From a phage, in the sequence record PX930853.1: a DNA stretch of 51,150 nucleotides; one strand, given 5' to 3'. Position 1 is the first letter of the stretch; each line of letters begins with the position of its first letter. The position numbers and the translations under genes are program-made. Below are positions 6,405-49,660 of this stretch, in pieces. Below the pieces are notes generated by a model. It saw nothing but the letters and a program-made list of their open reading frames with translations. It was not told where the DNA came from and made no database searches.

Positions 6405-6424
6405 GTAGCACTTTTTGCTAAACG
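6405..6424 (+). promoter_or_regulatory. conserved intergenic box (TTGCTA variant), ~55 bp upstream of lipoprotein gene
   Basis: AGTAGCACTTTTTGCTAAAC; TATAGT hexamer ~21 nt downstream. Confidence 0.35.
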
Positions 6425-6477
6425 CGCTCCTTAAAATCGTGTATAGTTGAACCAACAACAACAAAGGAGATGAAAAG

Positions 6478-6705
6478 ATGAAAAAGTTAATTGCCGTTTT
6501 AATCGCAGCCGTTGCGCTGACTGGTTGCGCAAATATGCCTAAACGTGAATGTACGGCTATTTATGAAAATAGCGGAATGCAGTATTCAGTTGCTATCTTT
6601 GGGGCAAAACGAGTTGGCGATCGCACTCTTGTTAAGGCTGGCTATCCATTTAATTTTCAGTGGGTAAGCATTGATAACTTTAAAAACGCTGATTGCAGTC
6701 TGTAA
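6478..6705 (+). CDS. lipoprotein, Cor-like superinfection-exclusion candidate
   Basis: Signal peptide with lipobox LTGC (MKKLIAVLIAAVALTGC); AGGAG RBS; isolated plus-strand gene next to tail genes, as for cor in FhuA-dependent phages. Confidence 0.5.
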   Translation: MKKLIAVLIAAVALTGCANMPKRECTAIYENSGMQYSVAIFGAKRVGDRTLVKAGYPFNFQWVSIDNFKNADCSL

Positions 6706-6715
6706 ATAAAAACAA

Positions 6716-6737
6716 AGGGGCAAAAGCCCCTTTTTTA
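6716..6737. terminator. bidirectional rho-independent terminator
   Basis: AGGGGC-AAAA-GCCCCT stem with flanking A-run and T6. Confidence 0.6.
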
Positions 6738-6738
6738 A

Positions 6739-7377
6739 TTAGTCGTAAATATCAGTCTTTATTGCAATTATTGAATTTCCGTTGTTTGTTATAGATCCTG
6801 TTCCTGGAGTTGTCCTTGCCGCACTTATCCTTGTGCTTGAACCATTATACCTGCACGATGTGTATATGTCAGACGCACCCATACCTATAACCGCACCAAG
6901 CCTTGATGGGCAAACAGCATAAGAACCAGATAATGTCTGATCTATATTCGTCCCACCAGAAGATCCAGGAGTACCAATTGTTACAAGATCTGTTAGTACC
7001 CTGCTCTCATTAGTTAAAACCAACTTTCCGCTTTCATCCCATATTGCCATACCATATTTGGGTAGAGTTTGAGGGAAGATAGCAAATATATAAACAGTCA
7101 TTGTAAATGATTGACCGTATGGATTGCCTCCGTTTACATAAATGTTGCCACCGTTCCTGTAAGCTATTAATGCGGTTGGCTGCTGTGTGTTTGTTGTTTT
7201 TATAAATGCCATACATGGATAAGATTGATTTAATGGTATATTTGCGCTTGCGCTATGATAGGCAGAAGTGCCAGAAGATGAATAAGTGTACTTGCCATAT
7301 AAGCAAAATGGCGTTGATTTTGGTGTGATAAATGGATTCCCATTTGATAAAGATAACATTGCTCCATATTCAGCCAT
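6739..7377 (-). CDS. hypothetical tail-associated protein, MAEYG paralog 1
   Basis: ORF starting MAEYGAMLSLS with GAGAGGG RBS; internal YGMAIWDESGK repeats N-terminal motif of upstream paralog. Confidence 0.5.
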   Translation of the reverse strand: MAEYGAMLSLSNGNPFITPKSTPFCLYGKYTYSSSGTSAYHSASANIPLNQSYPCMAFIKTTNTQQPTALIAYRNGGNIYVNGGNPYGQSFTMTVYIFAIFPQTLPKYGMAIWDESGKLVLTNESRVLTDLVTIGTPGSSGGTNIDQTLSGSYAVCPSRLGAVIGMGASDIYTSCRYNGSSTRISAARTTPGTGSITNNGNSIIAIKTDIYD

Positions 7378-11306: not shown

Positions 11307-11353
11307 GACTTTTAACCTTTTGTGCTGTTTCTTGGTTTGCACATTATAAATGC

Positions 11354-11383: not shown

Positions 11384-11860
11384 CTACTTTCCGTGGTTTA
11401 TGTGGAATTTGTTTAAAACTTCAATCTCTATCCTCTTTTCTGCCGCATCCTGAAATGAATCAAAGTAAAATTCATGCCTAACACCATCAATCTTTGCTCT
11501 TGCAATCCATTTTCCGCGACTAAAGTTTACCCCAGTAATTCCCGTCTTGCTGTTCCTGTAAAGCGACTTATTCTTGTTGTTAACACTCATTCTAACAAGT
11601 CTTAAGTTTGAAATATTGTCGTTCATTGTGTTGTGATCTATGTGATCAACTTGCATTCCATGCGGTATTTCTCCATTATGAATTTCCCAAACTATCCTGC
11701 TCCTGTAGTATCTTTCTCCATCAATTGATATTCTAACCCTTTCTCCACTCTTCTTGCTTTTGCTTACGCTTCCTGCCTCACTTCATTTCTTTATCCTTCT
11801 TCCTACGTCTACAGCCCAAAATAACTTACCGTCATTATAATAAAAAATATCACGCCACAT
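11384..11860 (-). pseudogene. HNH homing endonuclease (HNH + AP2-like domain) interrupted by single in-frame TGA at 11783..11785
   Basis: One frame reads MWRDIFYYNDGKLFWAVDVGRRIKK-TGA-SEAGS...RYYRSRIVWEIHNGEIPHGMQVDHIDHNTMNDNISNLRLV...; GGAGGTGATC RBS before ATG 11860; track shows only the distal 90-aa piece. Confidence 0.6.
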
Positions 11861-11921
11861 GATCACCTCCTTAATTAATTGTAAAGCGAAAATCCGTTTT
11901 CGCTTTAACATATTGTGCTAT

Positions 11922-17777: not shown

Positions 17778-17797
17778 ATAGCACTTTTTGTTAAAAG
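17778..17797 (+). promoter_or_regulatory. conserved intergenic box, oriented opposite to flanking late genes
   Basis: ATAGCACTTTTTGTTAAAAG; TAGATT hexamer ~22 nt downstream; faces the 3' end of the major tail gene. Confidence 0.3.
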
Positions 17798-17837
17798 TGG
17801 AATTGATTTATTTGATAGATTGATTTTACAGGAATGA

Positions 17838-17862
17838 AAAAAGGGGCGCAACGCCCCTTGTT
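17838..17862. terminator. bidirectional terminator after major tail protein gene
   Basis: AGGGGCG-CAA-CGCCCCT stem with A6 upstream and TTGTTTT downstream. Confidence 0.6.
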
Positions 17863-21528: not shown

Positions 21529-21529
21529 T

Positions 21530-36823: not shown

Positions 36824-36824
36824 A

Positions 36825-37037: not shown

Positions 37038-37049
37038 GGAGTAATAACC

Positions 37050-37313: not shown

Positions 37314-37333
37314 ATAGCACTTTTTGTTAAAAA
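37313..37333 (+). promoter_or_regulatory. conserved intergenic box
   Basis: AATAGCACTTTTTGTTAAAAC overlapping upstream TAA stop; ~55 bp before ATG 37389. Confidence 0.4.
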
Positions 37334-37388
37334 CGATGTGCGCCTGAATGGTATATTACACCCATCGACAACAAGCGAGGATTTAAAG

Positions 37389-37586: not shown

Positions 37587-37840
37587 TGGCATACGAAAAG
37601 AATGATTTCAATAGCGCAAGAGAAAAAATCAAGGCGGCGCGAATTAAACAGCGCGCCTTTAGATTCTGGCTTGACTATCGCGATCTAAGAAAAGAGATGG
37701 ATACGCTTATTAAGAACGGTAGCGCATTCTGCTCTAATAGAACGGTTTGGCGAAATATGAATCGCAGTACGGCCAGGGTAAAATTCGTGTATTTGGCGGC
37801 GCTGTTGATGCTTATGTATTTAGCGCAACAAATGCTGTAA
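37586..37840 (+). CDS. hypothetical early protein (84 aa), hydrophobic C-terminus
   Basis: ORF track; TAATG stop-start overlap. Confidence 0.45.
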   Translation: MAYEKNDFNSAREKIKAARIKQRAFRFWLDYRDLRKEMDTLIKNGSAFCSNRTVWRNMNRSTARVKFVYLAALLMLMYLAQQML

Positions 37841-37865
37841 GTTTTAACGTAACTGGGATCGCATA

Positions 37866-38078
37866 ATGGCAAAGCAATTAAAACTTAAATGCGTAGAAAC
37901 TTATAACTCAATTTGGAAATTTACGCGCGGAAAAGAATATCCACTAATGGGAAATCTCAAAGAAGATCCTCATGTAATTTCAGATAATGGTCTTCACCTT
38001 TATTTAATGGAATACAACGATGGGTATATTGGCGCTGGTGTTCCAGGTCATAAATTTAAGCTGAAAAATAAGAAATGA
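37866..38078 (+). CDS. hypothetical early protein (70 aa)
   Basis: ORF track. Confidence 0.45.
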   Translation: MAKQLKLKCVETYNSIWKFTRGKEYPLMGNLKEDPHVISDNGLHLYLMEYNDGYIGAGVPGHKFKLKNKK

Positions 38079-38186
38079 GGCTATTTATTTTCAAAAACGC
38101 TTGGATGGTGGCGGTTGCAAATGACCATTACGGCGGCGACGGAAAAAGAGCGCCACGTCATTCATATTTCAATTGAGGATATTTAA

Positions 38187-38414
38187 ATGAAAGCAAAAGT
38201 TTTAAACATTATGGCAACTATTGACGCTCATCACCGCGTGGCTGTAAAACTTGATAAGTCATGCGGAATTAGCCAAATCACTATCACAGAGGGCAAAGGC
38301 GGCTATCTTATTGGTATCCATCCAGGCGGTAAGGTGCGCAAATACAATAAAGATCAGGTAAAAGAATTACTGGAAGAAAACGCTTTCTATATTCAAAGTT
38401 GGCGCGCTCTTTAA
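38187..38414 (+). CDS. hypothetical early protein (75 aa)
   Basis: GAGGA RBS. Confidence 0.5.
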   Translation: MKAKVLNIMATIDAHHRVAVKLDKSCGISQITITEGKGGYLIGIHPGGKVRKYNKDQVKELLEENAFYIQSWRAL

Positions 38415-38421
38415 TTAATCT

Positions 38422-38447
38422 GGCGGCGTTTTGCCGCCTTTTAAATG
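38422..38447 (+). terminator. putative rho-independent terminator
   Basis: GGCGGCG-TTTT-GCCGCC stem followed by TTTTAAA. Confidence 0.5.
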
Positions 38448-38456
38448 AGGTGAAAA

Positions 38457-38573
38457 ATGATAGATAAAGCTATTGATTTCTTTTTTTATTCGATTATTGG
38501 CGCGGTTGGATTTTTGGTTACTGCTGCTGGCCTGGCTATTATCTTGGCTGTTATTAAGGGAGTTATGCGATGA
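38457..38573 (+). CDS. small membrane peptide (38 aa), not in ORF track
   Basis: GAGGTGAAAA RBS; MIDKAIDFFFYSIIGAVGFLVTAAGLAIILAVIKGVMR; ATGA overlap with next gene. Confidence 0.3.
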   Translation: MIDKAIDFFFYSIIGAVGFLVTAAGLAIILAVIKGVMR

Positions 38574-38794
38574 GTCAGGACGGTTTTTTTGAGCGCCTTC
38601 AAATGGCAGAAGATGCCGGACTAAATAAAGAGGCGGCGCTTGAAGTGGCATATAAAATTAAGACTCTTGATGAGGCTTTAGGTGATATGGATATGGATCT
38701 TGAATCAAGCGCAATATTTGCAGATCCAAATATGATTGTTAATGATTGTGGATGCGATTTCGATCCTAGTTGTCCGCGCTGTTTTCCGTTTTGA
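38570..38794 (+). CDS. hypothetical acidic protein with C-terminal Cys cluster
   Basis: ORF track; CGCDFDPSCPRC motif. Confidence 0.45.
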   Translation: MSQDGFFERLQMAEDAGLNKEAALEVAYKIKTLDEALGDMDMDLESSAIFADPNMIVNDCGCDFDPSCPRCFPF

Positions 38795-38802
38795 GGTAAT
38801 GA

Positions 38803-39330
38803 ATGAATTGGCACGATTACTTTACATACAATCCAGAAACTGGAAAGCTGTTCTGGAAAGAAAGAAAAGATATTCACCCATCAAGAGTTAAACAATGGAA
38901 TGCTTGCAATGCTGGTAATGAGGTTGGCTCTTTTGGTAGTGGTGGCAGATATTTAGAAACTGCACTTACTGTAAACGGAAAACGTTATAACCTGAAAGTT
39001 CATAGAATATGCTATGAAATGCACTATGGGCCTATACCGGAAGGAAAGGAGGTTGATCACGTAAATCACATCACGACTGATAACAGAGCAATAAACTTTG
39101 AGTTAAAAGATCACAAAGGAAATATGCGAAACACATCAAAGCAGAAAAACAATACAAGTGGCATACCAGGTGTGCATAAAAATAAACATGGCAAATGGGT
39201 TGTAAGGGTTGGAGGCGGAAAGCGAGGAAGTAGGATTTATATAGGTTGTTTTTCCAGTTTTGGAGATGCTGTTGCCGCAAAACGTAAAGCCGAGAATGAA
39301 TTGGGGTATCATAAAAATCATGGGAAATAA
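38803..39330 (+). CDS. HNH homing endonuclease with AP2-like DNA-binding domain
   Basis: YNPETGKLFW...VDHVNHITTDNRAINFEL HNH signature; C-terminal GIPGVHKNKHGKWVVRV AP2-like segment. Confidence 0.65.
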   Translation: MNWHDYFTYNPETGKLFWKERKDIHPSRVKQWNACNAGNEVGSFGSGGRYLETALTVNGKRYNLKVHRICYEMHYGPIPEGKEVDHVNHITTDNRAINFELKDHKGNMRNTSKQKNNTSGIPGVHKNKHGKWVVRVGGGKRGSRIYIGCFSSFGDAVAAKRKAENELGYHKNHGK

Positions 39331-40006
39331 AGTTGCTTACTCAATGTTTGATGGATCTGGAATCATGCTGCTTGAATATGCGAAGGCTGGCTATCAATGC
39401 TATTGCTTTAACGCTGATGAAGGCAATCACGGCGAATATTTCATCAAGATGAAACATGAAAATCTGCATTATGTGAATATGTGGATTGATGAAAATTTCA
39501 TTGAAAGAATCAGTAAGATTGGTATTCCAAAACCAGATATTGTATTTGGATTTCCAGACTGCACCATGTTTGCCCAATCAGGAATCAAGCACGTGCGAAG
39601 CGATGATGATATTCAGGTTGCGCTCAAAAATGCAATCATGGTTGAAACTGTCGGGAATCATTTCGGTGTCCCCTGGATGGCTGAGAATCCTGTAGGCCGA
39701 CTATCAACGCTATGGCGAAAGCCTGATTTTTATTTCAATCCTCGCGATTTTGGTAACTACCTGGACGAATCCGATGGATCTTTTCACCCCAAGATGCCGC
39801 TAAAGGATGGCTACACAAAAAGGACTGCTATCTGGTGCGGCAACGGATTTACAGAACCCGAACGCAAGCCGTTATCCAATGATGATGGCGTAATGTTCTT
39901 TTGGGGTTGGAAGTTTTTAGGCGGTAAGTCTGCCAGAACAAAGCAACTACGCTCCCTCACTCCGCGCGGCTTTGCTCGCGCCGTCTTTGAGTCAAACTCA
40001 AAATAG
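39320..40006 (+). CDS. putative SAM-dependent DNA methyltransferase (C5-cytosine-like motifs, atypical)
   Basis: FDGSG (motif I-like), FGFPDC (PC-like motif IV with inserted Asp), AENPVG (ENV-like); start overlaps 3' end of HNH gene. Confidence 0.4.
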   Translation: MGNKVAYSMFDGSGIMLLEYAKAGYQCYCFNADEGNHGEYFIKMKHENLHYVNMWIDENFIERISKIGIPKPDIVFGFPDCTMFAQSGIKHVRSDDDIQVALKNAIMVETVGNHFGVPWMAENPVGRLSTLWRKPDFYFNPRDFGNYLDESDGSFHPKMPLKDGYTKRTAIWCGNGFTEPERKPLSNDDGVMFFWGWKFLGGKSARTKQLRSLTPRGFARAVFESNSK

Positions 40007-40022
40007 CACTTTTTGTTAAAAG
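40002..40022 (+). promoter_or_regulatory. conserved intergenic box
   Basis: AATAGCACTTTTTGTTAAAAG then CCAGGT-GTAAAAA-ACCTGG dyad then CATAAT; ~50 bp before ATG 40076. Confidence 0.4.
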
Positions 40023-40075
40023 CCAGGTGTAAAAACCTGGCATAATCACATCGAACAAACAAAGGAGATCTGATC

Positions 40076-40462
40076 ATGAATGTTATCTGTAATGAAACCA
40101 ACGTATTGATGAAAGGCCGTTTTAAAACTGTTTATCAGAAGATTGCAGGAAGTGATGATGTGATCGAGGTGGAAGAGTTCCAGGTTAAGACGCTTGTTAA
40201 GGGTGGCCGCTGGCTTCCAGCAAACCGAGATGATTACCGCGCCATTAACACAAAAACCGTTCTTTGCACGTTTGTAGATCATAACATGCCGTGCAAAAAG
40301 CACTTTAAGCAGGGCAAGCGATACCAGATCGAGAAAGGGCGACCGCTTGGAAGCGTTGCGGGTTATGTTTTTGATGAGTGCGGCGACCGCTGGAACCTGT
40401 ACCGTGAAGAGGTCGGATTCTCTGCTGGCGGCTGTTATCTGTTTGAGGGCAAATATCTGTGA
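40076..40462 (+). CDS. hypothetical early protein (128 aa)
   Basis: AAAGGAG RBS. Confidence 0.5.
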   Translation: MNVICNETNVLMKGRFKTVYQKIAGSDDVIEVEEFQVKTLVKGGRWLPANRDDYRAINTKTVLCTFVDHNMPCKKHFKQGKRYQIEKGRPLGSVAGYVFDECGDRWNLYREEVGFSAGGCYLFEGKYL

Positions 40463-40680
40463 TAAACAGTGAAAACCGTTACAAAGTAACGCATTCTACC
40501 ACAAAGACTTTCAAGCCTGGCGATATAGTCAGGCCCATCAAAAAAACGGCGGTAGGTTGGCTGATTGGTTTTTCATATCATAAGGCGCTTTACTTTACGT
40601 TTAAGGATGGGATTACAGGAGAATGCTACAGCGACCGCCAGCCTGATCGACTTCTGGTTGCAATAGAGCGGATCAAATAG
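40459..40680 (+). CDS. hypothetical early protein (73 aa)
   Basis: ORF track; overlapping stop-start. Confidence 0.45.
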   Translation: MINSENRYKVTHSTTKTFKPGDIVRPIKKTAVGWLIGFSYHKALYFTFKDGITGECYSDRQPDRLLVAIERIK

Positions 40681-40696
40681 CACTTTTTGACAAAAC
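40676..40696 (+). promoter_or_regulatory. conserved intergenic box (TTGACA variant)
   Basis: AATAGCACTTTTTGACAAAAC then GGGCCGT...ACGGCCC dyad containing TAAAAT. Confidence 0.4.
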
Positions 40697-40748
40697 GGGG
40701 TAGTATTGGGCCGTTAAAATTTACGGCCCACAAAGGAGAAGCTAACGA

Positions 40749-42329
40749 ATGTTTTCATTAGAAACGAACAAATTAACTCCACAGCAAATAATCGCTATGG
40801 CTGAAAGCCAGAACCTTTCACCAGTTCGCGTATCAATTCAGGCTAACGGCTATCGCCAGTCGTCCAGCTTTTGGGGCGACGTGAAGGATGTAAATAGCGG
40901 TCACGATCGCTACCCCGTAATTTCTCTTGGTAATGATATTGATGTTGTCGGAAAGTTATCACGCAGTATTGCGCGATCCGTTCAATTCCCTGAATCATCG
41001 GCTTACATGCACTTTATCGGCTGCATTTCTGCCGCCATGCTTGGACGCTTTACGGTTGACTATCACGGGACCGATCAGCCGACTGCGATTTACGTCGTTA
41101 CAAGCCAGCCGCCGTCAACTGGTAAATCTGCGATCAACAGTATGGCTATTGCTCCGATGATTGCGGAAGTTGAGAAGATCAACGAGCAACGCCGCAAGGA
41201 AAGAAAGAAAATACAGGCAAAGTTGGCAGGTCTTGCAAAGGAGATGAAAAGCGAAAGATCAGGCGCTGATATGGAATCTCTATACCAGGAAAAAGAGGAT
41301 CTGGAAGAGAAGCTGGAAAAGATGTGTGATATAACTTTCCCTGTTTCAGATACAACTCCAGAAGGCTTGGCAAAAATCAACAACAAGCAAGGTAACTTTG
41401 CCGTAATATCTGACGAAGCAACAAGTATTAACAGTCTGTTAGGCTTGACCTATGCCAATAGCGAAAGGAAGACTAACAGTGAGCTAGTGCTTAAGGCGTG
41501 GGATAATGGTCACGTATCAATTGCCCGTGCTAATGCTGACAATAACATGAGTTTTCGCGCACTTGGATGTATGAGCGTTATAGCCCAGGATGAAACGATA
41601 AGCGGAATCATGGACGCTGGATCGCGCGGTATCGGTGTGAGTGAGCGCTTTTTGTTGGTCCGTGAGGAATCATTCTTAGGCCGTCGCTCATTCATTGATG
41701 AAAATGGTGATTCTACCTATGAGGCGGTGGATCCTGAATTGAAGGCCCAATATTATCAATTGGTGCATAACATCATGAGCGAATCAAATATATCGCTGAA
41801 AATAAGCCGTTCAGCTATGCGAGTGCTCAACATTGCTCGCCAGGATATGGAACCGCATCTTGCAGACGGCGGAAAGTATTCTCATACAATGTTACGCGGT
41901 GCGCTGGGTAAAATGGATAAACAGGTGATCAGGCTTGCTTCCGTCCTGCATGTTATCCGCAACTGGTTTAATCCTGCTGGATACCCGCAGAAGTCGAAAG
42001 AGATCGACGTGGAAACAATGCAAGAGGCGCTGATCATGTTTCAGGAATTGAGCAAAACATACATTAGCGCCGCCAATGCTTCTGGTTATGCTGGTGATGA
42101 TGCTGAAATGGGCAAATTGATTGAATTGATCACTAGACACGGCAAGGCTAATAAAGGGATTCTGAATATTCGCGCCCTGTACGAATCAGCGAGAAAGGTA
42201 AAACCTTTCGTTGGTCAGGCTGGCGTAATGAAGAGGATAGAAGGGCACTTGCTGCCAATGCTGGAAGAAAGAAATTATGTTTGTGTGATTAATGGTGTTA
42301 TTTTTGTCAATCCAATACTGCTGGGATGA
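40749..42329 (+). CDS. large early protein with P-loop NTPase-like motifs, function unknown
   Basis: 526 aa; Walker A-like PPSTGKSA, Walker B-like FAVISDEAT, central charged coiled coil; AAAGGAG RBS. Confidence 0.55.
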   Translation: MFSLETNKLTPQQIIAMAESQNLSPVRVSIQANGYRQSSSFWGDVKDVNSGHDRYPVISLGNDIDVVGKLSRSIARSVQFPESSAYMHFIGCISAAMLGRFTVDYHGTDQPTAIYVVTSQPPSTGKSAINSMAIAPMIAEVEKINEQRRKERKKIQAKLAGLAKEMKSERSGADMESLYQEKEDLEEKLEKMCDITFPVSDTTPEGLAKINNKQGNFAVISDEATSINSLLGLTYANSERKTNSELVLKAWDNGHVSIARANADNNMSFRALGCMSVIAQDETISGIMDAGSRGIGVSERFLLVREESFLGRRSFIDENGDSTYEAVDPELKAQYYQLVHNIMSESNISLKISRSAMRVLNIARQDMEPHLADGGKYSHTMLRGALGKMDKQVIRLASVLHVIRNWFNPAGYPQKSKEIDVETMQEALIMFQELSKTYISAANASGYAGDDAEMGKLIELITRHGKANKGILNIRALYESARKVKPFVGQAGVMKRIEGHLLPMLEERNYVCVINGVIFVNPILLG

Positions 42330-42721
42330 TTATGTTTTTGCTTGATCTGTATAAATGGTGTGAGTCATACGACTGGTTTAACAGGCAGCACATAGCCAAA
42401 TTTATCTATCAGCATAGAGAATGTGAGCGGCTCGCACGGGCCGCCGGACTTACGCCGCGAATGTTCGCCAGCCTTGCATCTAAGGAATTTTGCGCAAGAA
42501 TGATGACGGCTGGCTATATAGATGGGGTCTGCGGTAAATACTGGTCCAAAGGATCGTCAAAGCGGCCTTTCGGATTCGAATTGTATAGCCTGGATGGTAT
42601 GCGCAACGACTGGATCAGGGATATGGCGAGAATAGGGGAGATGGGCGATGATGAATTGTTCCAGGCAAAATCTAATAGACAAGATCTTGAAGCACTGCGC
42701 CGTAAATTCAATATCACATGA
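42326..42721 (+). CDS. hypothetical protein translationally coupled to P-loop protein
   Basis: ATGA start/stop overlap with 40749..42329. Confidence 0.5.
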   Translation: MIMFLLDLYKWCESYDWFNRQHIAKFIYQHRECERLARAAGLTPRMFASLASKEFCARMMTAGYIDGVCGKYWSKGSSKRPFGFELYSLDGMRNDWIRDMARIGEMGDDELFQAKSNRQDLEALRRKFNIT

Positions 42722-42837
42722 GGATTTTATTCATGCTTTACTTACGCTACTTTATTCAGATATGCGCGCTTTTAGCACCACTGAACATGTTTTATGCAAT
42801 GATGATGGTGTATTACTGGTTACGGTAAAGCGTATGG

Positions 42838-42858
42838 AATAGCATTTTTTGTTAAAAC
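42838..42858 (+). promoter_or_regulatory. conserved intergenic box
   Basis: AATAGCATTTTTTGTTAAAAC then CCCGGC...GTCGGG dyad then TATATT. Confidence 0.4.
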
Positions 42859-42918
42859 GCCCGGCATAGTGTCGGGTATATTTGTTTCATCGAAACGAAA
42901 CAACCAAAAGGTAAAATT

Positions 42919-43143
42919 ATGTCCAGCAAGTTTTTAGTAGTTCGCGTATATAATCATGACAACGGATCTTCTGCTGAAATCCCGACAATTTATGACAGGG
43001 ATTTTGGATGGAGTGAGCAATCGGCTGTTGAAAATGAGCGCAAGATTGCAGAACTGTACGGCGACACTTGCAGCATTGAAGTAAGGCAGTACGACGAATC
43101 GAACAAGCCAACAAACGAAACTCATATGTGGCCCGACGCATAA
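42919..43143 (+). CDS. hypothetical early protein (74 aa), last gene of rightward early cluster
   Basis: ORF track; followed by strong bidirectional terminator. Confidence 0.5.
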   Translation: MSSKFLVVRVYNHDNGSSAEIPTIYDRDFGWSEQSAVENERKIAELYGDTCSIEVRQYDESNKPTNETHMWPDA

Positions 43144-43177
43144 AAATAAAGGAGGCATTAAGCCTCCTTTTTCTTTT
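43142..43177. terminator. bidirectional rho-independent terminator between early-right and lysis clusters
   Basis: GGAGGC-ATTAA-GCCTCC stem with A-run upstream and T-run downstream. Confidence 0.6.
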
Positions 43178-43553
43178 CCCTCCAGTAAAGACAAATCAGC
43201 ACAATGAACACAACCACGCATATGATTATTGGATCGTACCATCTGCCGTTATTACCCTGCACGACCTGAATTTTGTCTGCCTTGATGGTATTGGCCTGAA
43301 TGGTTGATGTTGTGAAATCCTTCTTGCTGGACGTGTCCACCTTGTCAACCGCAGATTCCTTTATTGTGGTTTCCTGTTTTGTGCTGGCGTCCTGCTTTGC
43401 TGTAATGCCAACTGTCTGCTTCACGTTCTCCGCGCCAGCCTGTGCTGTTATTTCCGGCTTACTGCCGATTAATCCGGTCAGTGGCGTAACGCTTGAACAT
43501 CCAGACAAGATCACCGCCATTGCGATTGGTGTAAATAAAAATTTCTTCATCAT
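43158..43553 (-). CDS. unimolecular spanin (u-spanin): N-terminal lipoprotein signal plus C-terminal transmembrane helix
   Basis: [19 protein letters not shown] lipobox and C-terminal [16 protein letters not shown] followed by basic tail; directly after endolysin. Confidence 0.7.
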
Positions 43554-44041
43554 TTCAGATCCATTGTGCAATATTTGTATTCGACCTTGCGCCTGTTAAG
43601 TAAGCCTTTAGACTTCTCGCGCTTTCCTGTTTTGGGGTTATGGTAATACGTCCAACGATAAAGCTGATCGCAAGCCTCGTTTAATTTCCCCTGGTTGATG
43701 AGTTTCAGCATTGTTGAATTTCTGAAAGCTCCCACACCTGCATTGTAAGTGAATGAGTACATTGCTGCACGCATACTATCAGGAATGTCAACCTTAACTT
43801 GCTTGTCAACTTCCTTTTTAGCAACCTGGATATGCTTAGCCAACAAAGCATCACACTCTTTTTTAGTGTACGTTTTCCCCAGGATAACATCTGGTCCGGT
43901 GATTCCTGCGCAAACCGTCCATACTCCCGCAATATCTTTGTATGGCTTGTATCTTACCCCTTCGATCTCTTCAAGAAGTGGAGAAGTCAAGGCAACCGCA
44001 ACGCCAAAGGCCGCAGCCGCTACCTTGTTCTTTATGCTCAT
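43550..44041 (-). CDS. endolysin, lysozyme-like (T4/lambda R-type fold) with N-terminal signal-anchor-release-like segment
   Basis: E-x8-D-x5-T catalytic-type spacing ([22 protein letters not shown]); weakly hydrophobic Ala/Gly-rich N-terminus [17 protein letters not shown]. Confidence 0.8.
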
Positions 44042-44262
44042 TACTTGCCCCTGATCTCAATAGCTTTTTGAATATCACCTTTTTCGATCGCCTCGTGGAA
44101 TTTTTTACTATCACGCCAGCGAAGGTAAGCGCCCCATGCACCGAATGCAGCCATTAAAACAAAGCTGGCAATAGCAATGGTTAACTGCCCTGTAGCGGCG
44201 CTTGCGATAGATGAACCGCCAGATCCGGCGGTAGCTGCGTTAATAAAATCTTTCATTTTCAT
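44041..44262 (-). CDS. holin (pinholin-like, two predicted TM segments)
   Basis: 73 aa; Gly/Ala-rich first hydrophobic segment, second [23 protein letters not shown], charged C-terminus; GGAGA RBS. Confidence 0.65.
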
Positions 44263-44401
44263 TCTCCATATTAATTAAAGTCAATATATTGACCGCATGA
44301 TAAACGCACATGGTAAAAAATTAAACAAAAAAAAGAGGCGACAAACGCCGCCCCTTTGCAAGTTTTTGATTTAATTTGTCATTGATTTAAATAAAAATTC
44401 A

Positions 44402-45517
44402 TCAATTCATCATTTCTGGATAGTGAACAAATCGCCCAACCTCTCCATGCTCTTTGTCGTAAATGATAACCGCCGCACGGCGTCGAGATCTCCAGCCACC
44501 GCGCGCGGCGTATGCGTCTTTTGCCGCCAGGGTGCTATGTACCTCCACGATCCCAAGCGACGTTTCCGTCACGGTCTGGTGATGCCAGTGCCCTACGTGC
44601 GCATACATCGTTTTTGAGTTTCCGAAGTCCTCCCGCCAATCTGACGCGCACATCATTAGCAAAGTCTCCGGTTTACGCACTGTGTGCCCGTGATGGTACG
44701 CAAGGAAAGTTTTTCCGTATTGCGTGTGGTGAACAACGCGAGGAGAAACATCAACGTAAACGCGCGGCTCGTTCTCATATGCTGCCGCCATTGCTGCGCG
44801 TAGCCAAATCATTCCTGATTGGTCGTGATTGCCCTCAACGATCTGGACCTCAACATGTTTATGCTTTAACAGCATTTTATTAATTGCGCGGCGCATTGCA
44901 CGTATTGCAACGTAAACCAATTTTGCATATCGGCTATCTTGATCAAGTACGTGACCGCTTGCAGGGGTCACAGCCTCCAGGCCATCGCTATGAAGCATGT
45001 CGCCACCAATCAGGATAACAGCCTTTTCACTGTCAGGTGCGCACATCAAAGCATAGTCGATAAAGTTATTCATAACGCGCTCCGCCGTCGCAGTATCCCA
45101 ATTTTCGCCGCATTCGTGCTTATGGGCCATAGCGCCTAAGTGCATGTCAAAGATCGGATACAATGAAAGCGTTTCATTATAGTCACGCTCCTGCAATGGA
45201 ACTGGATCTAATCGCGGCACTTCCTCGCTAAACGCCTCCATTGCTGCGCGCATCAATGCTTCTAATTGCTCTTTGTCCTTGCTGGTTTTGGTCCACTTGA
45301 GGATTATGTTGCCTTCTTTGTCGGTCATTACTGACTCACCATGAACACCAAAACCAGGCGCTCCAATGGTCGATAACTGTCCTTGCTTTGCAAGACGCGC
45401 CGCGCGACGCTCGACGCTTCTCACATTCATTCCGTACTCTTGAGCGATCTGTTTATATGTCTTACCTGCCGCCCGTTCGATCTTGAATTGCTCATCTGTA
45501 ATTTTTACATTTTTCAT
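44402..45517 (-). CDS. HTH domain fused to calcineurin-like metallophosphoesterase
   Basis: N-terminal HTH-like KTYKQIAQEYGMNVRSVERRAARL; phosphoesterase motifs DMH, GGDMLHSD, GNHD, HHGH, GHWHH. Confidence 0.6.
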   Translation of the reverse strand: MKNVKITDEQFKIERAAGKTYKQIAQEYGMNVRSVERRAARLAKQGQLSTIGAPGFGVHGESVMTDKEGNIILKWTKTSKDKEQLEALMRAAMEAFSEEVPRLDPVPLQERDYNETLSLYPIFDMHLGAMAHKHECGENWDTATAERVMNNFIDYALMCAPDSEKAVILIGGDMLHSDGLEAVTPASGHVLDQDSRYAKLVYVAIRAMRRAINKMLLKHKHVEVQIVEGNHDQSGMIWLRAAMAAAYENEPRVYVDVSPRVVHHTQYGKTFLAYHHGHTVRKPETLLMMCASDWREDFGNSKTMYAHVGHWHHQTVTETSLGIVEVHSTLAAKDAYAARGGWRSRRRAAVIIYDKEHGEVGRFVHYPEMMN

Positions 45518-45611
45518 TCTGCTACCTATCTCATTACTATATGGTACATAACTGTAACAGCGATGATAACGGGTAACGGTAGAACAAACAAGCGCCACAT
45601 GATAACTATCC

Positions 45612-45854
45612 TCATTTATAATATTTGCGAGGCTCTCGGATTTTAGCCATTGCCTCTTTGAAATCAATTTTTGTTGGAACTGCTGGAACTCTTACCATTT
45701 TTCGCGGCCTTTCCTTGAGGAAAGTCATCTTATCACCGCTAATTATGCTCACATCTGCAATATCAAAGTATTGCGCGATCTTCTTTATATCGTCGGCAAT
45801 ACCGCATTCTTTAGCGTGATTCCATACCGCCTCTCTCCCTTGCTCAACCTTCAT
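45612..45854 (-). CDS. hypothetical protein (80 aa)
   Basis: GGAGG RBS before internal ATG of track ORF 45612..45902. Confidence 0.45.
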   Translation of the reverse strand: MKVEQGREAVWNHAKECGIADDIKKIAQYFDIADVSIISGDKMTFLKERPRKMVRVPAVPTKIDFKEAMAKIREPRKYYK

Positions 45855-46023
45855 GCTTATAATATGCCTCCGCTTGTTCAATTGGCGCGTGACCGTATGC
45901 AACTTTCAGTAAAAACATTGCGATCTCCCAATCAAACTGGAACCCTTCCTTTGAACCGCCATCCACTGAACCTTTTGCTACTTCTTGAGCAAGATTAAAA
46001 GCGCGTTTATCGAATACCACCAT
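45844..46023 (-). CDS. small ORF (59 aa), not in ORF track
   Basis: GAGGAAAT RBS then ATG; ~55 bp downstream of conserved box at 46081. Confidence 0.3.
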   Translation of the reverse strand: MVVFDKRAFNLAQEVAKGSVDGGSKEGFQFDWEIAMFLLKVAYGHAPIEQAEAYYKHEG

Positions 46024-46080
46024 TTTTTATTTCCTCATGTTTGCTTCGTTGAAATAATTATGCCCGACACTAGGCCGGGC

Positions 46081-46101
46081 GTTTTAACAAAAAGTGCTAT
46101 T
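46081..46101 (-). promoter_or_regulatory. conserved intergenic box (minus orientation)
   Basis: Reverse complement AATAGCACTTTTTGTTAAAAC then GCCCGGC...GTCGGGC dyad then CATAAT. Confidence 0.4.
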
Positions 46102-46357
46102 AGTGGTTCATTCCGTGCTGAAAATTCCACGAATCGACAAACTCTTGCATGTCATTTCTGATTTGTTCGTGCCATTTTTCAAGCGGGAGTTTTCTTGTCT
46201 CCTCAAAGCTCATATCTAATGCGCTTGAAAATTCCCACGGATCGCAATCAATCATCTTTTTCACGTTAGGATTTTTATCAAGTGCATCGCACACCATAGC
46301 GCGAAATAACAACCATTCGCCAGTTTCATTTAAATAAAAGCTTCTCTCTTTTTTCAT
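46100..46357 (-). CDS. hypothetical protein (85 aa)
   Basis: ORF track. Confidence 0.5.
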   Translation of the reverse strand: MKKERSFYLNETGEWLLFRAMVCDALDKNPNVKKMIDCDPWEFSSALDMSFEETRKLPLEKWHEQIRNDMQEFVDSWNFQHGMNH

Positions 46358-46361
46358 CGTG

Positions 46362-47093
46362 TTAGCTCCGTTTGCGTGCGCGACGTTCTGTTACAGAAGG
46401 GCAAATATCGCTGATCTTAACGTATCGCGTTTTCTGCTCCTCGCCTTCTTTAAGTTTGCGCATGACAAAAATCACGCTTCCCTTGTTGTTGCCCTGCACA
46501 GGCTCACCAGTCAATCCAGACACAAAGGCAATTCTTCCGGTGCGGGAGTATTCTACTCCACCCTCTTCGTAAACCTCACCAGTGATCCAGATGATTTCAG
46601 CCGCGTTTTTCTGCGCCTCATAAAACCATGCTGTAGAGTTGTCGGCTGGCAACAAAACATCAATTTGGTTGTTGTGCTCCATTTGCTCAATTGCTTTCTT
46701 GATAAATGGAGTTGGGTTGCTGTACGGCGGGTTAAGCCATACGTGCTTGTTGCTACCCCACCAACGCTTTAAGCAGTTTGTTTCCTTGCTATAGAACTTC
46801 TCGCAAACTGCGTTTTCCTGGCTTGCTGCCGCGTCGAGATCGTATTCACCAAATTCTGATTCCATCCACTCCACGATCTCTTGAGGCGTGCTCCACATAT
46901 CTCGCACAACGTCCGGCGTAGTGCTTCCAGCGTATCGGTTTCCGCTTACCTTATAATATTGATTTGGCTTTACTGCCTGGTAATGGCCTCCAGTTGCAAG
47001 GGCATTCCCTATAAACGTTTCTCTCTCCAACTGCTCAAAGCTAACGAATGCGTCATGGGTGTCTTTATCTAAAATATCTTTAGCCATTTTCAT
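46362..47093 (-). CDS. dam: DNA N6-adenine methyltransferase (phage Dam-like)
   Basis: NPPY motif (HVWLNPPYS) and SAM-binding-like region; start chosen at downstream ATG with RBS (track start 47114 also possible). Confidence 0.75.
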   Translation of the reverse strand: MKMAKDILDKDTHDAFVSFEQLERETFIGNALATGGHYQAVKPNQYYKVSGNRYAGSTTPDVVRDMWSTPQEIVEWMESEFGEYDLDAAASQENAVCEKFYSKETNCLKRWWGSNKHVWLNPPYSNPTPFIKKAIEQMEHNNQIDVLLPADNSTAWFYEAQKNAAEIIWITGEVYEEGGVEYSRTGRIAFVSGLTGEPVQGNNKGSVIFVMRKLKEGEEQKTRYVKISDICPSVTERRARKRS

Positions 47094-47151
47094 TTCTCCG
47101 CTATTAAAAGCCATCTCGTGTTATTGAATTATGGCGCAATCCATCGCGCCA

Positions 47152-47173
47152 GTTTTAACAAAAAGTGCTATTT
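47152..47173 (-). promoter_or_regulatory. conserved intergenic box (minus orientation) upstream of dam
   Basis: Reverse complement AAATAGCACTTTTTGTTAAAAC then TGGCGC...GCGCCA dyad then ATAATT. Confidence 0.4.
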
Positions 47174-47587
47174 AAGCATGTATTCAATAGCCAACTTAAA
47201 CTGATTGAATCCGTAGGCTACCGCAGCGAATCCTCCTAAGCTGCGAACGCGACGCAAAAAAGCCTTTTGTTCATCGCTGACTGGTGATGCTTTCCCCTTG
47301 CCTGATTTATTCACTCGTTTGATCTCAATCGCTGCAAAGGGGTATTTTCCGTTTAAACCAATCAGAATGATGAAATCGCTTACTCCCTTAACCAAGCCGG
47401 ACTGCTGATCAATCATCGCCGTTGCTTTAGACTTCTCATTCTCGTTTACCGTATGCCACGCCAGCAAATAAGGATGAGCATAAGTCAACCACTGAAAACT
47501 ATCTATCTGGTGATTAACTTCCCTTCTCGTGTCGGTTGGATCCCTTTCGTAAAACTCAAGATAATCGCCTTTATCAGTTATAGCCAT
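47168..47587 (-). CDS. VRR-NUC domain nuclease (PD-(D/E)XK), putative
   Basis: GVSDFIILIG...AAIEIKR motif pattern; start overlaps helicase stop. Confidence 0.55.
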   Translation of the reverse strand: MAITDKGDYLEFYERDPTDTRREVNHQIDSFQWLTYAHPYLLAWHTVNENEKSKATAMIDQQSGLVKGVSDFIILIGLNGKYPFAAIEIKRVNKSGKGKASPVSDEQKAFLRRVRSLGGFAAVAYGFNQFKLAIEYMLK

Positions 47588-49584
47588 TAAACAAACTCCC
47601 GTTTTGCAATGTTATCCTCACCTTTGCCGTTTTTGCGATGCGTTACGCGTACAGGAGGCATGATGTGATGAGCGTATGACATTATTTTACGCGCATTTCT
47701 ATAGCTAGCCACCATACCAGCAATCTTGCGATCCGGTATGTGCTGCAATGCTATTTTTCTCCATATCGTCCGGCAAATGTTGCTTTCTGACTCAGGGAAA
47801 AATCTTTCGTATGCCTTGAACGTGTCGCCGTTGGCCTCAAGCTCATAGCAAAAAACAATTCCTTTCTGGTTTTTCGTCATATCAACGCGGAAAGATTTAA
47901 CGTCGCACCAATCGTTTTTGGTGTAGTGCTTGCCGCTTAACTTCTCGTTAGGATCGACAAGAGAAATATCGCAACAACGGCATACTCTCGCAACTACGTC
48001 GTTTTTTGTTCCGCAACCGCGCTTGATTATCTTTTTCGTTCTCGGATCTACCTGGTCCTCGCAAATTCTGTAAGTCCAAAAATGCTCGCATCTCTTCCCG
48101 TTATCGTCTACGTGCATACATCGGCGAGCGTAAAAGCTGTTTAGCGTTCCACATATCGGACAAGTCTTAGGCTCTTTCCCGTTTGTAAATCTCTTTTGGA
48201 ATTGCGCTTGCTCAAGGATTGGATCGAAATACAAATCCCCTAACTCATCCATAGTACCGGCAAAATCCAATACAAGATGGTCTTTTTTCTTGAATCCCTG
48301 CTCAATGTGCCATTGCTTAAGCAGTCGCATACCGCGCCCCAAAAGCTGGATAAGTAATGTTAGAGATCCTATCTTTCTCAGTATTACCGAAGTATCCCAA
48401 AACGGAACGTTAACGCCAGTGGTAAGCGCCTGTACCTGAAAGATGTATTTTACTTTTCCCTCGTATGCCTCCCTCAGCCACTCTTTACGCTGATTGTCTC
48501 CAGTCTTGCCAGTTATGATCCTGTATTCAACGCCTGGCGGAAGTGCGGCGGCGGCCTCCTTGCAGTGTCTTTCCCCTGCGCATGTAACTAAAACTCCGTT
48601 CCTGTCTTTGCATATCTCATGGACTTTAGCCATGATTTTCTGTGTCATTGTTGCGTCTTGATGGATCTTTTCTTCCATCTTGCGCAATGTTTTAGCGTCA
48701 AAGTCTGAAACGCCATCCTCGCTACTGGCTTCGAACTCTGAAAGGTCATACCCCAGGTCGCCTACGTCGCCGAAATTTGTTGACACTACCGAACCAAATT
48801 TGATTAAGTAGTTTGTGTCTATGTTAGTCACCTGCTCACGCCAGAATCCCTTTTTGTTCTTATCTTCAACCAGTATTGGAACCACGCCGCGAAACTCAGA
48901 TCCAGTCATACCGAATATTCGCAATTCGTGCCCGTATGCCTCGCGACACCTGCGCATCATTTCCATGATTATTACGGTGTACTGTGTGCGTCCTGTTCCG
49001 AACATTGGATCGCCATTGGAATCAAATTGCTGTTCTTCTCCAATCAGTACAGGCAAATCCTTCTTAGTGGTCATCTGCTGGTAAGATTCATTATTTTCTA
49101 TCGCGTCGGCGAGATCCTCCCAATCCACCTGGTGACATTCATCAATACCGATAACGTGCGGAACATAATCACCTAACGACTTAAACAATCCGTTTACCAC
49201 AGTGCCCTCAGAACCGACTACGATCGGAAAGTATGCGCTTTTTGTTTTCAGTCCGGCGCAATAGATTGAGTTTGGCACGCCAAGATTGCTGATCTCTTCC
49301 GAATCCTGATCAACAATTTCAGCCTGGCGAGCAAGGACCATCATTTTCAATCCCATTTTGCGGCATTGCGCAGCAACCATCGCAAACATCAAAGTTTTGC
49401 CAGCCGACACAGAAGCCTTAACGAAGAAAGGATGCTCATAGTTTTTCATGCGCTTTGCGATCTCGGCATACGCAACGCACTGATAAGGATAAGGCACTAT
49501 ATTGCCAACCGTGAATCGCTCTTGGATGATTTTTATTACTGCCTCGCCTAACGCTGATATTTGTTTTTCGATATTTGGAATCAT
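47587..49584 (-). CDS. superfamily 2 ATP-dependent helicase with C-terminal Cys-rich zinc-finger region
   Basis: Walker A SAGKT, DExH box IGIDECHQV, multiple CxxC pairs near C-terminus. Confidence 0.75.
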   Translation of the reverse strand: MIPNIEKQISALGEAVIKIIQERFTVGNIVPYPYQCVAYAEIAKRMKNYEHPFFVKASVSAGKTLMFAMVAAQCRKMGLKMMVLARQAEIVDQDSEEISNLGVPNSIYCAGLKTKSAYFPIVVGSEGTVVNGLFKSLGDYVPHVIGIDECHQVDWEDLADAIENNESYQQMTTKKDLPVLIGEEQQFDSNGDPMFGTGRTQYTVIIMEMMRRCREAYGHELRIFGMTGSEFRGVVPILVEDKNKKGFWREQVTNIDTNYLIKFGSVVSTNFGDVGDLGYDLSEFEASSEDGVSDFDAKTLRKMEEKIHQDATMTQKIMAKVHEICKDRNGVLVTCAGERHCKEAAAALPPGVEYRIITGKTGDNQRKEWLREAYEGKVKYIFQVQALTTGVNVPFWDTSVILRKIGSLTLLIQLLGRGMRLLKQWHIEQGFKKKDHLVLDFAGTMDELGDLYFDPILEQAQFQKRFTNGKEPKTCPICGTLNSFYARRCMHVDDNGKRCEHFWTYRICEDQVDPRTKKIIKRGCGTKNDVVARVCRCCDISLVDPNEKLSGKHYTKNDWCDVKSFRVDMTKNQKGIVFCYELEANGDTFKAYERFFPESESNICRTIWRKIALQHIPDRKIAGMVASYRNARKIMSYAHHIMPPVRVTHRKNGKGEDNIAKREFV

Positions 49585-49640
49585 CTTAAACCTTTAAAAA
49601 ATGCCATTTTGAGTATATAATAGACTCATTACAATAAACT

Positions 49641-49660
49641 GTTTTAACAAAAAATGCTAT
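49641..49660 (-). promoter_or_regulatory. conserved intergenic box (variant) upstream of helicase gene
   Basis: Reverse complement ATAGCATTTTTTGTTAAAAC; TATTAT 22 nt after TTGTTA. Confidence 0.4.

Follow-up and report, generated by a model that had tools for sequence, protein, structure and literature searches.

The phage sequence record PX930853.1 (51,150 nucleotides (nt); 'the window' below means this whole stretch of DNA) carries about 20 near-consensus copies of a 20-base-pair (bp) intergenic box. We find that this box is very probably a marbox, the type of site bound by the Escherichia coli activators MarA, SoxS and Rob, placed in the geometry of class II promoters; this is a claim at the level of sequence. 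It is also probable, with clearly less assurance, that the boxes form class II Mar/Sox/Rob-type promoters driven by an activator of the host. The repeat itself has already been published and, as far as the searchable literature shows, what is new here is its promoter anatomy and its identity as a marbox; in that literature we found no published link between marboxes and T1-like phages and no transcript mapping in Drexlerviridae.

The window is the complete or near-complete genome of a T1-like coliphage. Across 20 kilobases (kb) it is 96–98% identical to phages MikeNSara, Poky, tonijn and FritzSarasin; the latter is classified as Drexlerviridae, Tempevirinae, Warwickvirus, and we place the window in Warwickvirus. 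The late structural genes occupy ~28.3 to 7.7 kb of the minus strand, and the early genes form three blocks, running from 35.4 to 28.3 kb (minus), from 36.0 to 43.1 kb (plus) and from 49.6 to 44.4 kb (minus). In 850 related phage records, the hosts given are nearly all Enterobacterales.

Searched with AATAGCACTTTTTGTTAAAAC at up to three mismatches, the window yields 14 matches where 0.01 are expected, a number that none of 100 shuffled sequences reaches. The consensus of the phage family, ATAGCACnnnTTGnTAAAA, retrieves 19 copies at up to two mismatches (0.21 expected), and one further, degenerate copy, the 20th, lies at 50132(+). A preliminary description of this DNA had listed 12 clear copies, all of which are present at the same coordinates and on the same strands with zero to two mismatches to AATAGCACTTTTTGTTAAAAC, and its three weaker variants, at 6405(+), 31666(-) (of the GAAT type, ATAGCACGAATTGCTAAAC) and ~108(-), are real as well. 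Absent from it were two strong copies in the late region, 17778(+) and 21531(+), which lie on the strand opposite to the genes, two further late copies that are co-oriented with the genes, 26155(-) and 11903(-), and the degenerate copy at 50132(+). Most of what it said on the placement of the boxes is upheld. More specifically, the start codon follows 72–99 nt from the first base of the box, that is 52–79 nt from its end, and at most sites the preceding gene ends in the TAG of the box or in a TAA just 5' of it. The co-orientation with the next gene that it reported holds in the early regions and breaks down for the late-region copies 17778(+) and 21531(+) and for 108(-). The box is indeed a specific recognition element, and one tied to promoters.

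A motif search of related T1-like genomes finds multiple copies in all of them: 15–21 per genome in T1, Rtp, TLS, Klebsiella phage PKP126 and e4/1c (five genera), 15 in Vibrio phage Vc1 and 18 in Pseudomonas phage Motto. Two phages outside Drexlerviridae that share only a Cro-like helix-turn-helix (HTH) contain no boxes, and in an exact-pattern scan of IMG/VR the multi-copy contigs were confined to the 41–52 kb size class. The same element was reported in a 2024 re-annotation of TLS as a 21-nt direct repeat, aaATAGCACnnnTTGnTAAAA, with 21 copies in that genome, co-oriented with transcription and located ~76 nt 5' of start codons; it was said to have T, G and A subtypes and was noted for T1, Rtp and Rogue1 as well (PMC11447400). 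Consensus, orientation, start-codon distance and the T/G/A subtypes all coincide with those of the window box. The authors of that study found only three sigma-70-like promoters in TLS and left the function of the repeat open, suggesting stoperators, enhancer sites or UP elements (PMC11447400). Unlike the present analysis, they reported neither a fixed -10 register nor a marbox identity (PMC11447400).

The promoter anatomy was derived from 110 boxes of six Drexlerviridae genomes, aligned on the first base of the box. Outside the box, conserved features were found only downstream of it and at fixed distance. A hexamer at positions 38–43 bears the hallmarks of a sigma-70 -10 element (second base A in 91/110, sixth base T in 95/110), and is preceded by G two bases to its 5' side, at -14, in 83 boxes and by T at -15 in 49. 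Further downstream, C followed by A occupies positions 49/50 (-1/+1), the A being present in 85/110. Because this A stands where a start is expected, 6–7 nt after the -10, the box would span ~-50 to -31, with its centre at -40.5. The gap between the 20-bp box and the -10 is exactly 18 nt at 14 sites of the window and at 87 of the 110 family sites, and all 87 boxes linked to a -10 in this way are in forward orientation. Among these 87 sites, 67 have a -10 that matches TATAAT in at least five of six positions, 70 have G-14 and 34 the full TG of an extended -10; the best TTGACA match at 16–18 nt spacing reaches only two or three of six positions in 79. Judged by these features, the box cassettes are promoters with a good, often extended -10, no -35 and a highly conserved upstream box.

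The preliminary description had remarked that the TTGTTA inside the box is too distant from the -10 for a normal -35, and this is correct: the TTGnTA-to-(-10) distance is 22 nt, and the canonical 16–18 nt is found only at 21531(+) and 108(-), both 16 nt. Its reading of TTGnTA as a -35-like hexamer has to be abandoned, these bases being instead the 'tg..aaa' half of a marbox. Several other assignments were tried and rejected. TTGTTA fails as a -35 by its 22-nt spacing, and the hexamers that do lie at 16–19 nt (AAAACn, TAAAAC, TTAAAA) are poor or variable. An extended -10 within the box (TGnTAAAAC) would have its final-position T in just 3/110 boxes, and an antisense extended -10 on the reverse complement (TGCTATnnn) usually lacks its final T and is plausible only at capsid-gene sites, which have a full sense promoter. 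A sigma-54 promoter (GG-N10-GC) misfits by eye in both the spacing and the essential GG. Sites for IHF or Lrp match the box only in part, and the marbox fits all of its conserved positions.

The published marbox consensus is 5'-gcannwwntgnnaaa-3' (PMC12052159), and the MarA consensus from chromatin immunoprecipitation sequencing (ChIP-seq) is 5'-gcactaattgctaaa-3' (PMC5684230). Within the marbox, GCAC forms the A site and CAAA the B site, and the site at micF is centred at -41.5 (PMC9638938). At zero mismatches, the 15-mer gcannwwntgnnaaa occurs at 18 sites in the window, where 1.76 are expected, and 18 of these 18 are boxes; across the family, 93 of the 110 boxes fit it perfectly. A 20-mer consensus, AYnGCACnnWnnRYYAAAYn (A site GCAC, B site YAAA), was reportedly given by Martin et al. 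in 1999, and 91/110 boxes fall within one mismatch of it. Variation among boxes falls exactly on those positions that are n or w in the marbox; position 13 is occupied by C or T, in line with the Y of the 20-mer, and GCAC (100%) and G12 (99%) are invariant or nearly so. Some phage boxes are identical to known host sites. The core of the window box at 26156(-) equals both the MarA ChIP consensus gcactaattgctaaa and the E. coli yneO site, and T1 boxes equal the E. coli pheP and ybjC sites; MarA binds the yneO, pheP and ybjC sites in vitro at 0.3 uM.

The same result was obtained with a weight matrix built from 32 in-vitro-confirmed host MarA sites alone, with no phage sequence in it. When this MarA matrix is run on the 51-kb window, the top 17 positions are boxes (16.5–20.0 bits), and 19/19 boxes lie inside the top 21. 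For comparison, the leave-one-out median of native sites is 11.8, and the highest score in a shuffled window is usually 13–15. One matrix match of 16.4 bits, GCACAATAAGCTAAA at 27592..27606(+), is antisense inside the large-terminase gene and has no -10 at class II distance; it is probably a chance match.

In class II promoters a forward marbox overlaps the -35 and is centred near -41.5 (PMC12052159, PMC9638938). Cryo-electron microscopy of Rob at micF shows contacts with G-47 and A-45 and occlusion of sigma region 4 from the -35, and Rob is constitutively abundant (PMC9178005). In E. coli K-12, we find at micF the marbox ACAGCACTGAATGTCAAAAC, 18 nt and TAGAAT, at inaA a forward marbox candidate (three mismatches to the 20-mer), 18 nt and TATAGT, and at fumC a perfect marbox, 17–18 nt and an A/T hexamer. 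The marbox of the mar operon itself lies on the reverse strand (GATGCCACGTTTTGCTAAATC). The phage cassettes share with micF, inaA and fumC, and also with lpxC P2, lpxL P1 and rfaY P1, a 20-bp asymmetric site (ACAGCACTGAATGTCAAAAC at micF, ATAGCACTTTTTGTTAAAAC in the phage) that lies forward over the -35 region, 18 nt from a sigma-70 -10 and with no functional -35. The G and A of the phage box at -47/-45 from the predicted start are the positions contacted by Rob at micF, and the box centre of -40.5 is within the class II range of -36 to -55. The phage differs from the host in having ~20 near-consensus copies in 51 kb, whereas host sites are few and degenerate (16.5–20 versus a median of ~12 bits), in the frequent extended -10, in the RNA hairpin within the box-to-(-10) spacer, and in that its promoters stand on a virulent phage.

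We propose that a host activator would bind GCAC (-47..-44) and TAAA (-36..-33), would occupy the DNA instead of sigma region 4, and would recruit RNA polymerase via contacts with sigma and with the C-terminal domain of the alpha subunit (alpha-CTD), transcription then starting at the A ~6–7 nt past the -10. Some 14 marbox promoters would in this way serve nearly all early gene clusters. The activator would be MarA, SoxS or Rob (RamA in Klebsiella), monomeric proteins with two HTH motifs. Of these, Rob is the likeliest, given its constitutive production, and the missing -35 fits the occlusion of sigma region 4 from the -35 by Rob. We infer the start sites, the binding of Rob, MarA or SoxS, and the dependence of phage transcription on them. 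Of the three functions that the preliminary description had offered for the box, an unusual promoter, a site for an activator or takeover factor, or an RNA processing signal, an activator site fits best.

Several points weigh against control by a host activator. It is counter-intuitive for a virulent phage to rely on factors that are stress-induced (MarA, SoxS) or largely sequestered (Rob), and the extended -10 may allow considerable transcription without any activator. Resistance to T1 classically maps to fhuA and tonB; rob, marA and soxS are not known as T1 resistance genes. A phage gene annotated as 'transcriptional regulator' (49672..50148(+), a homologue of T1 gp23) has its own canonical promoter and an adjacent box, which also fits a cascade run by a phage protein. 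Finally, the same boxes occur in phages labelled as Vibrio cholerae (Vc1) and Pseudomonas aeruginosa (Motto) phages, which would speak against an enterobacterial factor if the labels were correct. We treat these two host labels as doubtful since both phages have 45% guanine-cytosine content and typical coliphage-like genomes; either the hosts are wrongly given, as in T1-like records labelled 'Campylobacter', or the boxes are functional outside Enterobacterales.

This regulator is the main rival candidate for the reader of the box, and a phage protein as reader is, on the evidence below, unlikely. The likeness to the marbox would then be coincidence or mimicry, and the regulator, made early from its own promoter, would bind as a dimer to TAGCA-N5-TG(C/T)TA centred at -42, activating in the manner of lambda cI at PRM or later shutting off the promoters. 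Its gene always adjoins a box, its box-independent promoter and the inverted box in its leader suit autoregulation, the protein is conserved in the 850 related phage records, and the partial dyad TAGCA-N5-TGCTA is perfect in about half of the boxes. Conservation of the site is not symmetric, however: its left flank is ATA..C and its right flank T..AAAA, the orientation to the -10 is strict, the invariant G3 (100%) is mirrored by C at just 51% of sites, and the conserved positions outside the dyad are those that the marbox requires. An unrelated site would fit the 15-mer by chance at a rate of ~4e-6 per register.

The properties of the regulator itself point the same way. It has weak Pfam matches to the YdaS and P22_Cro HTH families, and the best PDB folds for its AlphaFold2 model (pLDDT 85.6) are Cro proteins, with a single HTH and not two, at weak scores (E 0.017). 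The putative recognition helix is 41–82% identical among eight phages that have one box consensus, and it carries an insertion in Vc1 and Motto; a recognition helix that varies under an invariant box argues against the regulator as the reader, as do the two non-Drexlerviridae phages that have a related HTH and no boxes. The phage HTH proteins that the preliminary description named for binding assays are not the likely readers of the box. Some doubt is left by the N-terminal basic motif of the regulator, DKRxxNGNNGxxRGxDKKxRK, which is almost invariant, is of low confidence in the model and could contact DNA. A C-terminal segment, GYRASFCRPDLxFDxNGK..C, is conserved too, and the conserved parts of the regulator may bind something other than a specific operator. 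The second HTH-containing product, a phosphoesterase or 'DNA repair exonuclease' homologue (44402..45517(-)), has an N-terminal HTH that weakly resembles sigma-70 region 4 (18.4 bits, Pfam cut-off 25.7).

In six-frame open reading frames (ORFs) of six phage genomes, phmmer and hmmsearch detected no MarA/SoxS/Rob homologues (best E 0.25), and no AraC-type Pfam domain was found in 44 early ORFs. A phage-encoded MarA/AraC-type protein was rejected on these grounds and on the Cro-like fold of the regulator. With no phage homologue, a variable regulator helix, and hosts from the Enterobacterales, which carry MarA, SoxS, Rob and RamA, a host activator is the most economical reader. At lambda PRM (cI at OR2, centre -42) and at the Mor- and C-dependent middle and late promoters of Mu, an activator site likewise overlies a poor -35, but these activators are phage-encoded dimers on symmetric sites, whereas the box is asymmetric and matches a monomeric activator of the host. 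T4 middle promoters depend on a MotA box plus AsiA (sigma appropriation), and there too a box replaces the -35 and the sigma-70 -10 is kept; the MotA box, however, is centred at -30 and two phage proteins are needed, whereas the window box is centred near -41, and no MotA or AsiA homologues were seen in the window.

Less probable still is that the holoenzyme alone reads the box, as a UP-element-like or bent-DNA aid to the extended -10, so that the early promoters would be strong and constitutive, with no further factor needed; UP elements are among the suggestions of the TLS authors (PMC11447400). At -50..-31 the box would lie where alpha-CTD binds, it contains T- and A-tracts, many of the promoters have G-14 or TGn, and at 21531(+) and 108(-) the TTGnTA lies 16 nt from a -10-like hexamer and is possibly a true -35. 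Against this, UP elements are, reportedly from the work of Estrem et al. in 1998, A/T-only (at -59..-38), whereas the box has invariant G/C positions (GCAC and G12), and elsewhere the 22-nt distance from TTGnTA to the -10 is incompatible with contact by sigma region 4. The box register is also 5 bp off the UP consensus, and on this and on the invariant G/C positions we rejected a UP element.

A mainly negative role of the boxes is very unlikely, whether as 'stoperator'-like roadblocks, which the TLS authors suggested (PMC11447400), or as decoys that soak up MarA, SoxS and Rob against the host stress response. With ~20 high-scoring sites on every genome copy, MarA or SoxS, being scarce, could be titrated, some boxes lie over core promoters or leaders of capsid, tail fibre and regulator genes, and there is no -10 at the usual offset for 26155(-), T1 8362(+) and TLS 24908(+); yet neither a roadblock nor a decoy needs the class II distance and orientation at which 87/110 boxes are locked to a -10, and no immunity repressor is known from these virulent phages. 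Stoperators of the mycobacteriophage L5 type, asymmetric sites inside transcription units at which a bound phage repressor halts elongation, were rejected in particular, with the boxes locked to a -10 upstream of predicted starts and no repressor-type gene seen besides the Cro-like regulator.

Many cassettes also encode a short GC hairpin. Stems of at least 5 bp between box and start are present in 66/110 cassettes, compared to 16–27 in shuffles; they vary in sequence and position, and GAAA or UUCG loops are frequent. Single stem mismatches are far more often G.T (17) than A.C (3), which argues that the hairpins are selected on the sense strand, in RNA. Each lies either against the -10 or around it, the 3' arm reaching to ~-1, and by this position transcripts from the cassette's own promoter would lack the hairpin and read-through RNA from upstream would carry it. 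Several such hairpins are annotated as rho-independent terminators in the T1 GenBank record (38973..39001, 39998..40024, 41980..42007, 35930..35971). A clear U-run follows only some (e.g. 26142..26121, one after 50132, and T1 41956), and many are followed only by the -10 hexamer. The hairpins would be terminators, insulators or 3'-end stabilisers in the RNA of the upstream gene, and each intergenic cassette would consist of a terminator plus a promoter. Class II spacer DNA has no sequence requirement, which would explain the freedom to encode a hairpin. We rejected a lambda nut-like boxA/boxB RNA since the hairpins vary in sequence and position. At 50132..50203(+), a terminator hairpin (GGCCCAGC...GCTGGGCC, then a T-run) holds the -10 TAATAT in its loop and the predicted start in its 3' arm, so that termination would affect only transcripts that come from upstream; this hairpin/promoter design between regulator and primase recurs in T1 and TLS.

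That the box itself acts in RNA, as a processing or stability signal of polycistronic early transcripts, is the least probable of all: the box would be transcribed in read-through RNA and is followed by hairpins with RNA-type G.U pairing, but its distance is fixed to the DNA -10 and not to the variable hairpins, inverted copies exist, and Rfam has no match for it, so that the RNA-processing option of the preliminary description finds no support. Each of these rival explanations accounts for less of the conserved pattern than does a marbox in class II geometry.

The boxes of the window and the two box-independent promoter candidates are given below; start sites in all rows are predictions from the -10 position, and 'matrix' is the score of the MarA matrix.

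30371..30390, minus: box ATAGCACTTTTTGTTAAAAC; -10 TAAAGT 30352..30347; start ~30340; ORF from 30314; matrix 17.8; hairpin 30364..30341 encloses the -10.
31665..31684, minus: box of the GAAT type, ATAGCACGAATTGCTAAACG; -10 TATAAT 31646..31641; start ~31634; ORF from 31610; matrix 19.0; hairpin 31665..31647.
32984..33003, minus: box ATAGCACTTTTTGTTAAAAC; -10 TATAGT 32965..32960; start ~32953 (CCCATC); ORF from 32928; hairpin 32977..32952 encloses the -10.
34202..34221, minus: box; -10 CATAAT 34183..34178; start ~34171; ORF of 297 amino acids from 34122.
34665..34684, minus: box; TGG plus CATAAT 34646..34641 (extended -10); start ~34634 (CTCATC); ORF from 34608; hairpin GCCAGGC/GCCTGGC 34664..34646 abuts the -10.
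36010..36029, plus: box variant ATGGCACTTTTTGTTAAAAC; -10 TACATT 36048..36053; start ~36060; first of the promoters in the rightward early block; ATG 36088.
37314..37333, plus: box; TGG plus TATATT 37352..37357; start ~37364; ATG 37389.
40003..40022, plus: box; TGG plus CATAAT 40041..40046; start ~40053; ATG 40076; hairpin 40022..40041.
40677..40696, plus: box variant ATAGCACTTTTTGACAAAAC; -10 TAAAAT 40715..40720; start ~40727; helicase-like gene 40749..42329; matrix 14.4; hairpin 40708..40729 encloses the -10.
42839..42858, plus: box variant ATAGCATTTTTTGTTAAAAC; -10 TATATT 42877..42882; start ~42889; ATG 42919; hairpin CCCGGCA/TGTCGGG with a G.T pair, 42860..42876, terminator-like score.
46081..46100, minus: box; -10 CATAAT 46062..46057; start ~46050; ATG 46023; hairpin 46080..46062, terminator-like score.
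47152..47171, minus: box; -10 CATAAT 47133..47128; start ~47121; Dam-like methyltransferase gene 46362..~47100; hairpin 47151..47132, whose homologous T1 hairpin is the annotated terminator 38973..39001.
49641..49660, minus: box variant ATAGCATTTTTTGTTAAAAC; -10 TATTAT 49622..49617; start ~49610; helicase gene 47587..49584; back-to-back with the ribosome-binding site (RBS) of the regulator gene.
50132..50151, plus: 20th box, degenerate, ACAGCACGAATAGCTAATGA; overlaps the end of the regulator gene; -10 TAATAT 50170..50175; start ~50182; primase ATG 50203; matrix 14.0; homologous to T1 35977(-) and TLS 35222(-).
6405..6424, plus: weak box GTAGCACTTTTTGCTAAACG; -10 TATAGT 6442..6447, one base nearer than usual; start ~6454; small lipoprotein (Cor-like) gene 6478..6705; matrix 18.0.
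11902..11921, minus: box ATAGCACAATATGTTAAAGC; -10 TACAAT 11883..11878; start ~11871; 5' of a small ORF and an HNH-type ORF inserted among tail genes; matrix 18.0.
17778..17797, plus: box antisense to late genes, where the genes for the major tail protein and the tape-measure chaperone adjoin; -10 TAGATT 17816..17821; points into a bidirectional terminator ~17838..17862; abuts the RBS of the gene from 17763(-); same arrangement at T1 18832(-).
21531..21550, plus: inverted box 5' of the major capsid gene; read in box orientation, TTGTTA, 16 nt, TATGCT.
26154..26173, minus: box ATAGCACTAATTGCTAAAAA, between the large terminase and portal genes; lacks a -10 at the standard distance; next come TATAAT 26149..26144 and then terminator hairpin 26142..26121; matrix 20.0, the best of the window.
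107..126, minus: weak box ATAGCACTTTTTGCTAATGA; back-to-back with the RBS of the tail-fibre gene (ATG ~144, plus); lacks a -10 at the standard distance; TTGCTA, 16 nt, TAGCAT as an alternative; points towards a terminator ~70..45; matrix 14.9.
49593..49621, plus: canonical sigma-70 promoter candidate of the regulator gene; TTTAAA, 17 nt, TATAAT; its -10 region is common, on the opposite strand, to the helicase box promoter.
35443..35471, minus: box-independent canonical promoter candidate; TTGACA, 17 nt, GATAAT; before the first leftward early gene (DUF7174); the best canonical match of the early regions.

A Pfam scan of the early ORFs gave an LPAM_1 match, linked to the lipoprotein gene 6478..6705; it also gave HNH_3 matches, which putatively account for the HNH-type ORF that follows the box at 11902..11921(-). 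Sites homologous to the box at 107..126(-) are T1 34902(+), Rtp 33762(+) and e4/1c 30492(+).

Some of the atypical copies overlap promoters or leaders of other genes. At the capsid gene, the inverted box 21531(+) supplies both spacer and TGn to a sigma-70 promoter in sense direction (TTGCAC 21555..21550, 16 nt, TGcTATCAT 21533..21528). This inverted-box promoter is conserved in T1, TLS, PKP126, Vc1 and Motto, and Rtp and e4/1c have at the same locus a box-less TTGCGT-N17-TATAAT. Just 5' of the RBS, a terminator-like hairpin (21524..21505, with a T-run) contains the predicted start of the capsid promoter in its 5' arm. The boxes 108(-), 17778(+) and 49642(-) are back-to-back with the RBS of the divergent tail fibre, tape-measure chaperone and regulator genes, respectively. 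In the case of the regulator, the inverted box lies in the transcribed leader and adjoins the Shine-Dalgarno; equivalents of its canonical promoter are present in T1 (TTGAAT-17-TATAAT), in TLS (TTGACT-17-TATCAT) and also in PKP126. These placements suggest that a box-bound protein could also repress late or regulator promoters.

A rather doubtful extension of these observations is that T1-like phages hand nearly their whole early programme to host MarA, SoxS or Rob (or RamA), and that the same factor acts negatively at the inverted boxes of the capsid, tail fibre, chaperone and regulator genes. Titration by the ~20 boxes per genome copy, or competition by the Cro-like protein for the quasi-palindromic core, would then let early expression fade and release late expression, as a passive timer. 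If this were true, hosts with raised marA, ramA or soxS, which include many multidrug-resistant clinical isolates, would support Drexlerviridae measurably differently, and exposure to salicylate, bile or paraquat would alter support likewise, including that for Klebsiella Webervirus therapy phages.

For its part, the proposal that the boxes are class II marbox promoters would supply the early promoters of T1-like phages with predicted starts, would explain the annotated 'terminators' inside intergenic cassettes, and predicts dependence on rob, marA or soxS. It would tie phage expression to the multidrug-resistance regulators of E. coli, Salmonella and Klebsiella, which is relevant to phage-antibiotic combinations and to production hosts for Drexlerviridae, and it would offer the cassettes as compact, naturally insulated activator-dependent promoters. 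Should the dependence on a host factor fail, there remains a published repeat with a better-defined promoter anatomy.

Further observations concern the surroundings of the boxes. A transcribed leader, (C)ATCGAAACGAAA..GAGGA, is conserved after the predicted start in many cassettes across genera (e.g. 34634..34620 and 37364..37378), and is possibly a translational enhancer, an initial transcribed sequence or an RNase site. At 29000..48900, 21 sigma-70-like consensus matches are observed and 36.1 +/- 6.2 in shuffles; the early regions appear depleted of canonical promoter-like sites. The ~600-bp non-coding stretch at 35.45–36.05 kb, in which the TTGACA/GATAAT candidate before the DUF7174 gene is located, corresponds to the T1 genome ends and pac region. 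A box-like ACAGCACAAAAGGTTAAAAG at 11311..11330(-), and in TLS at 24908(+), abuts the start codon of the J-like tail-tip gene; no -10 follows it, and AGG replaces the TTG and probably serves as Shine-Dalgarno. Lastly, HNH homing-endonuclease genes in late regions have a box promoter of their own (window 11860..11921(-), Rtp 6316 and 21393, TLS 48177), and these mobile genes seem to travel with the promoter cassette of the family.

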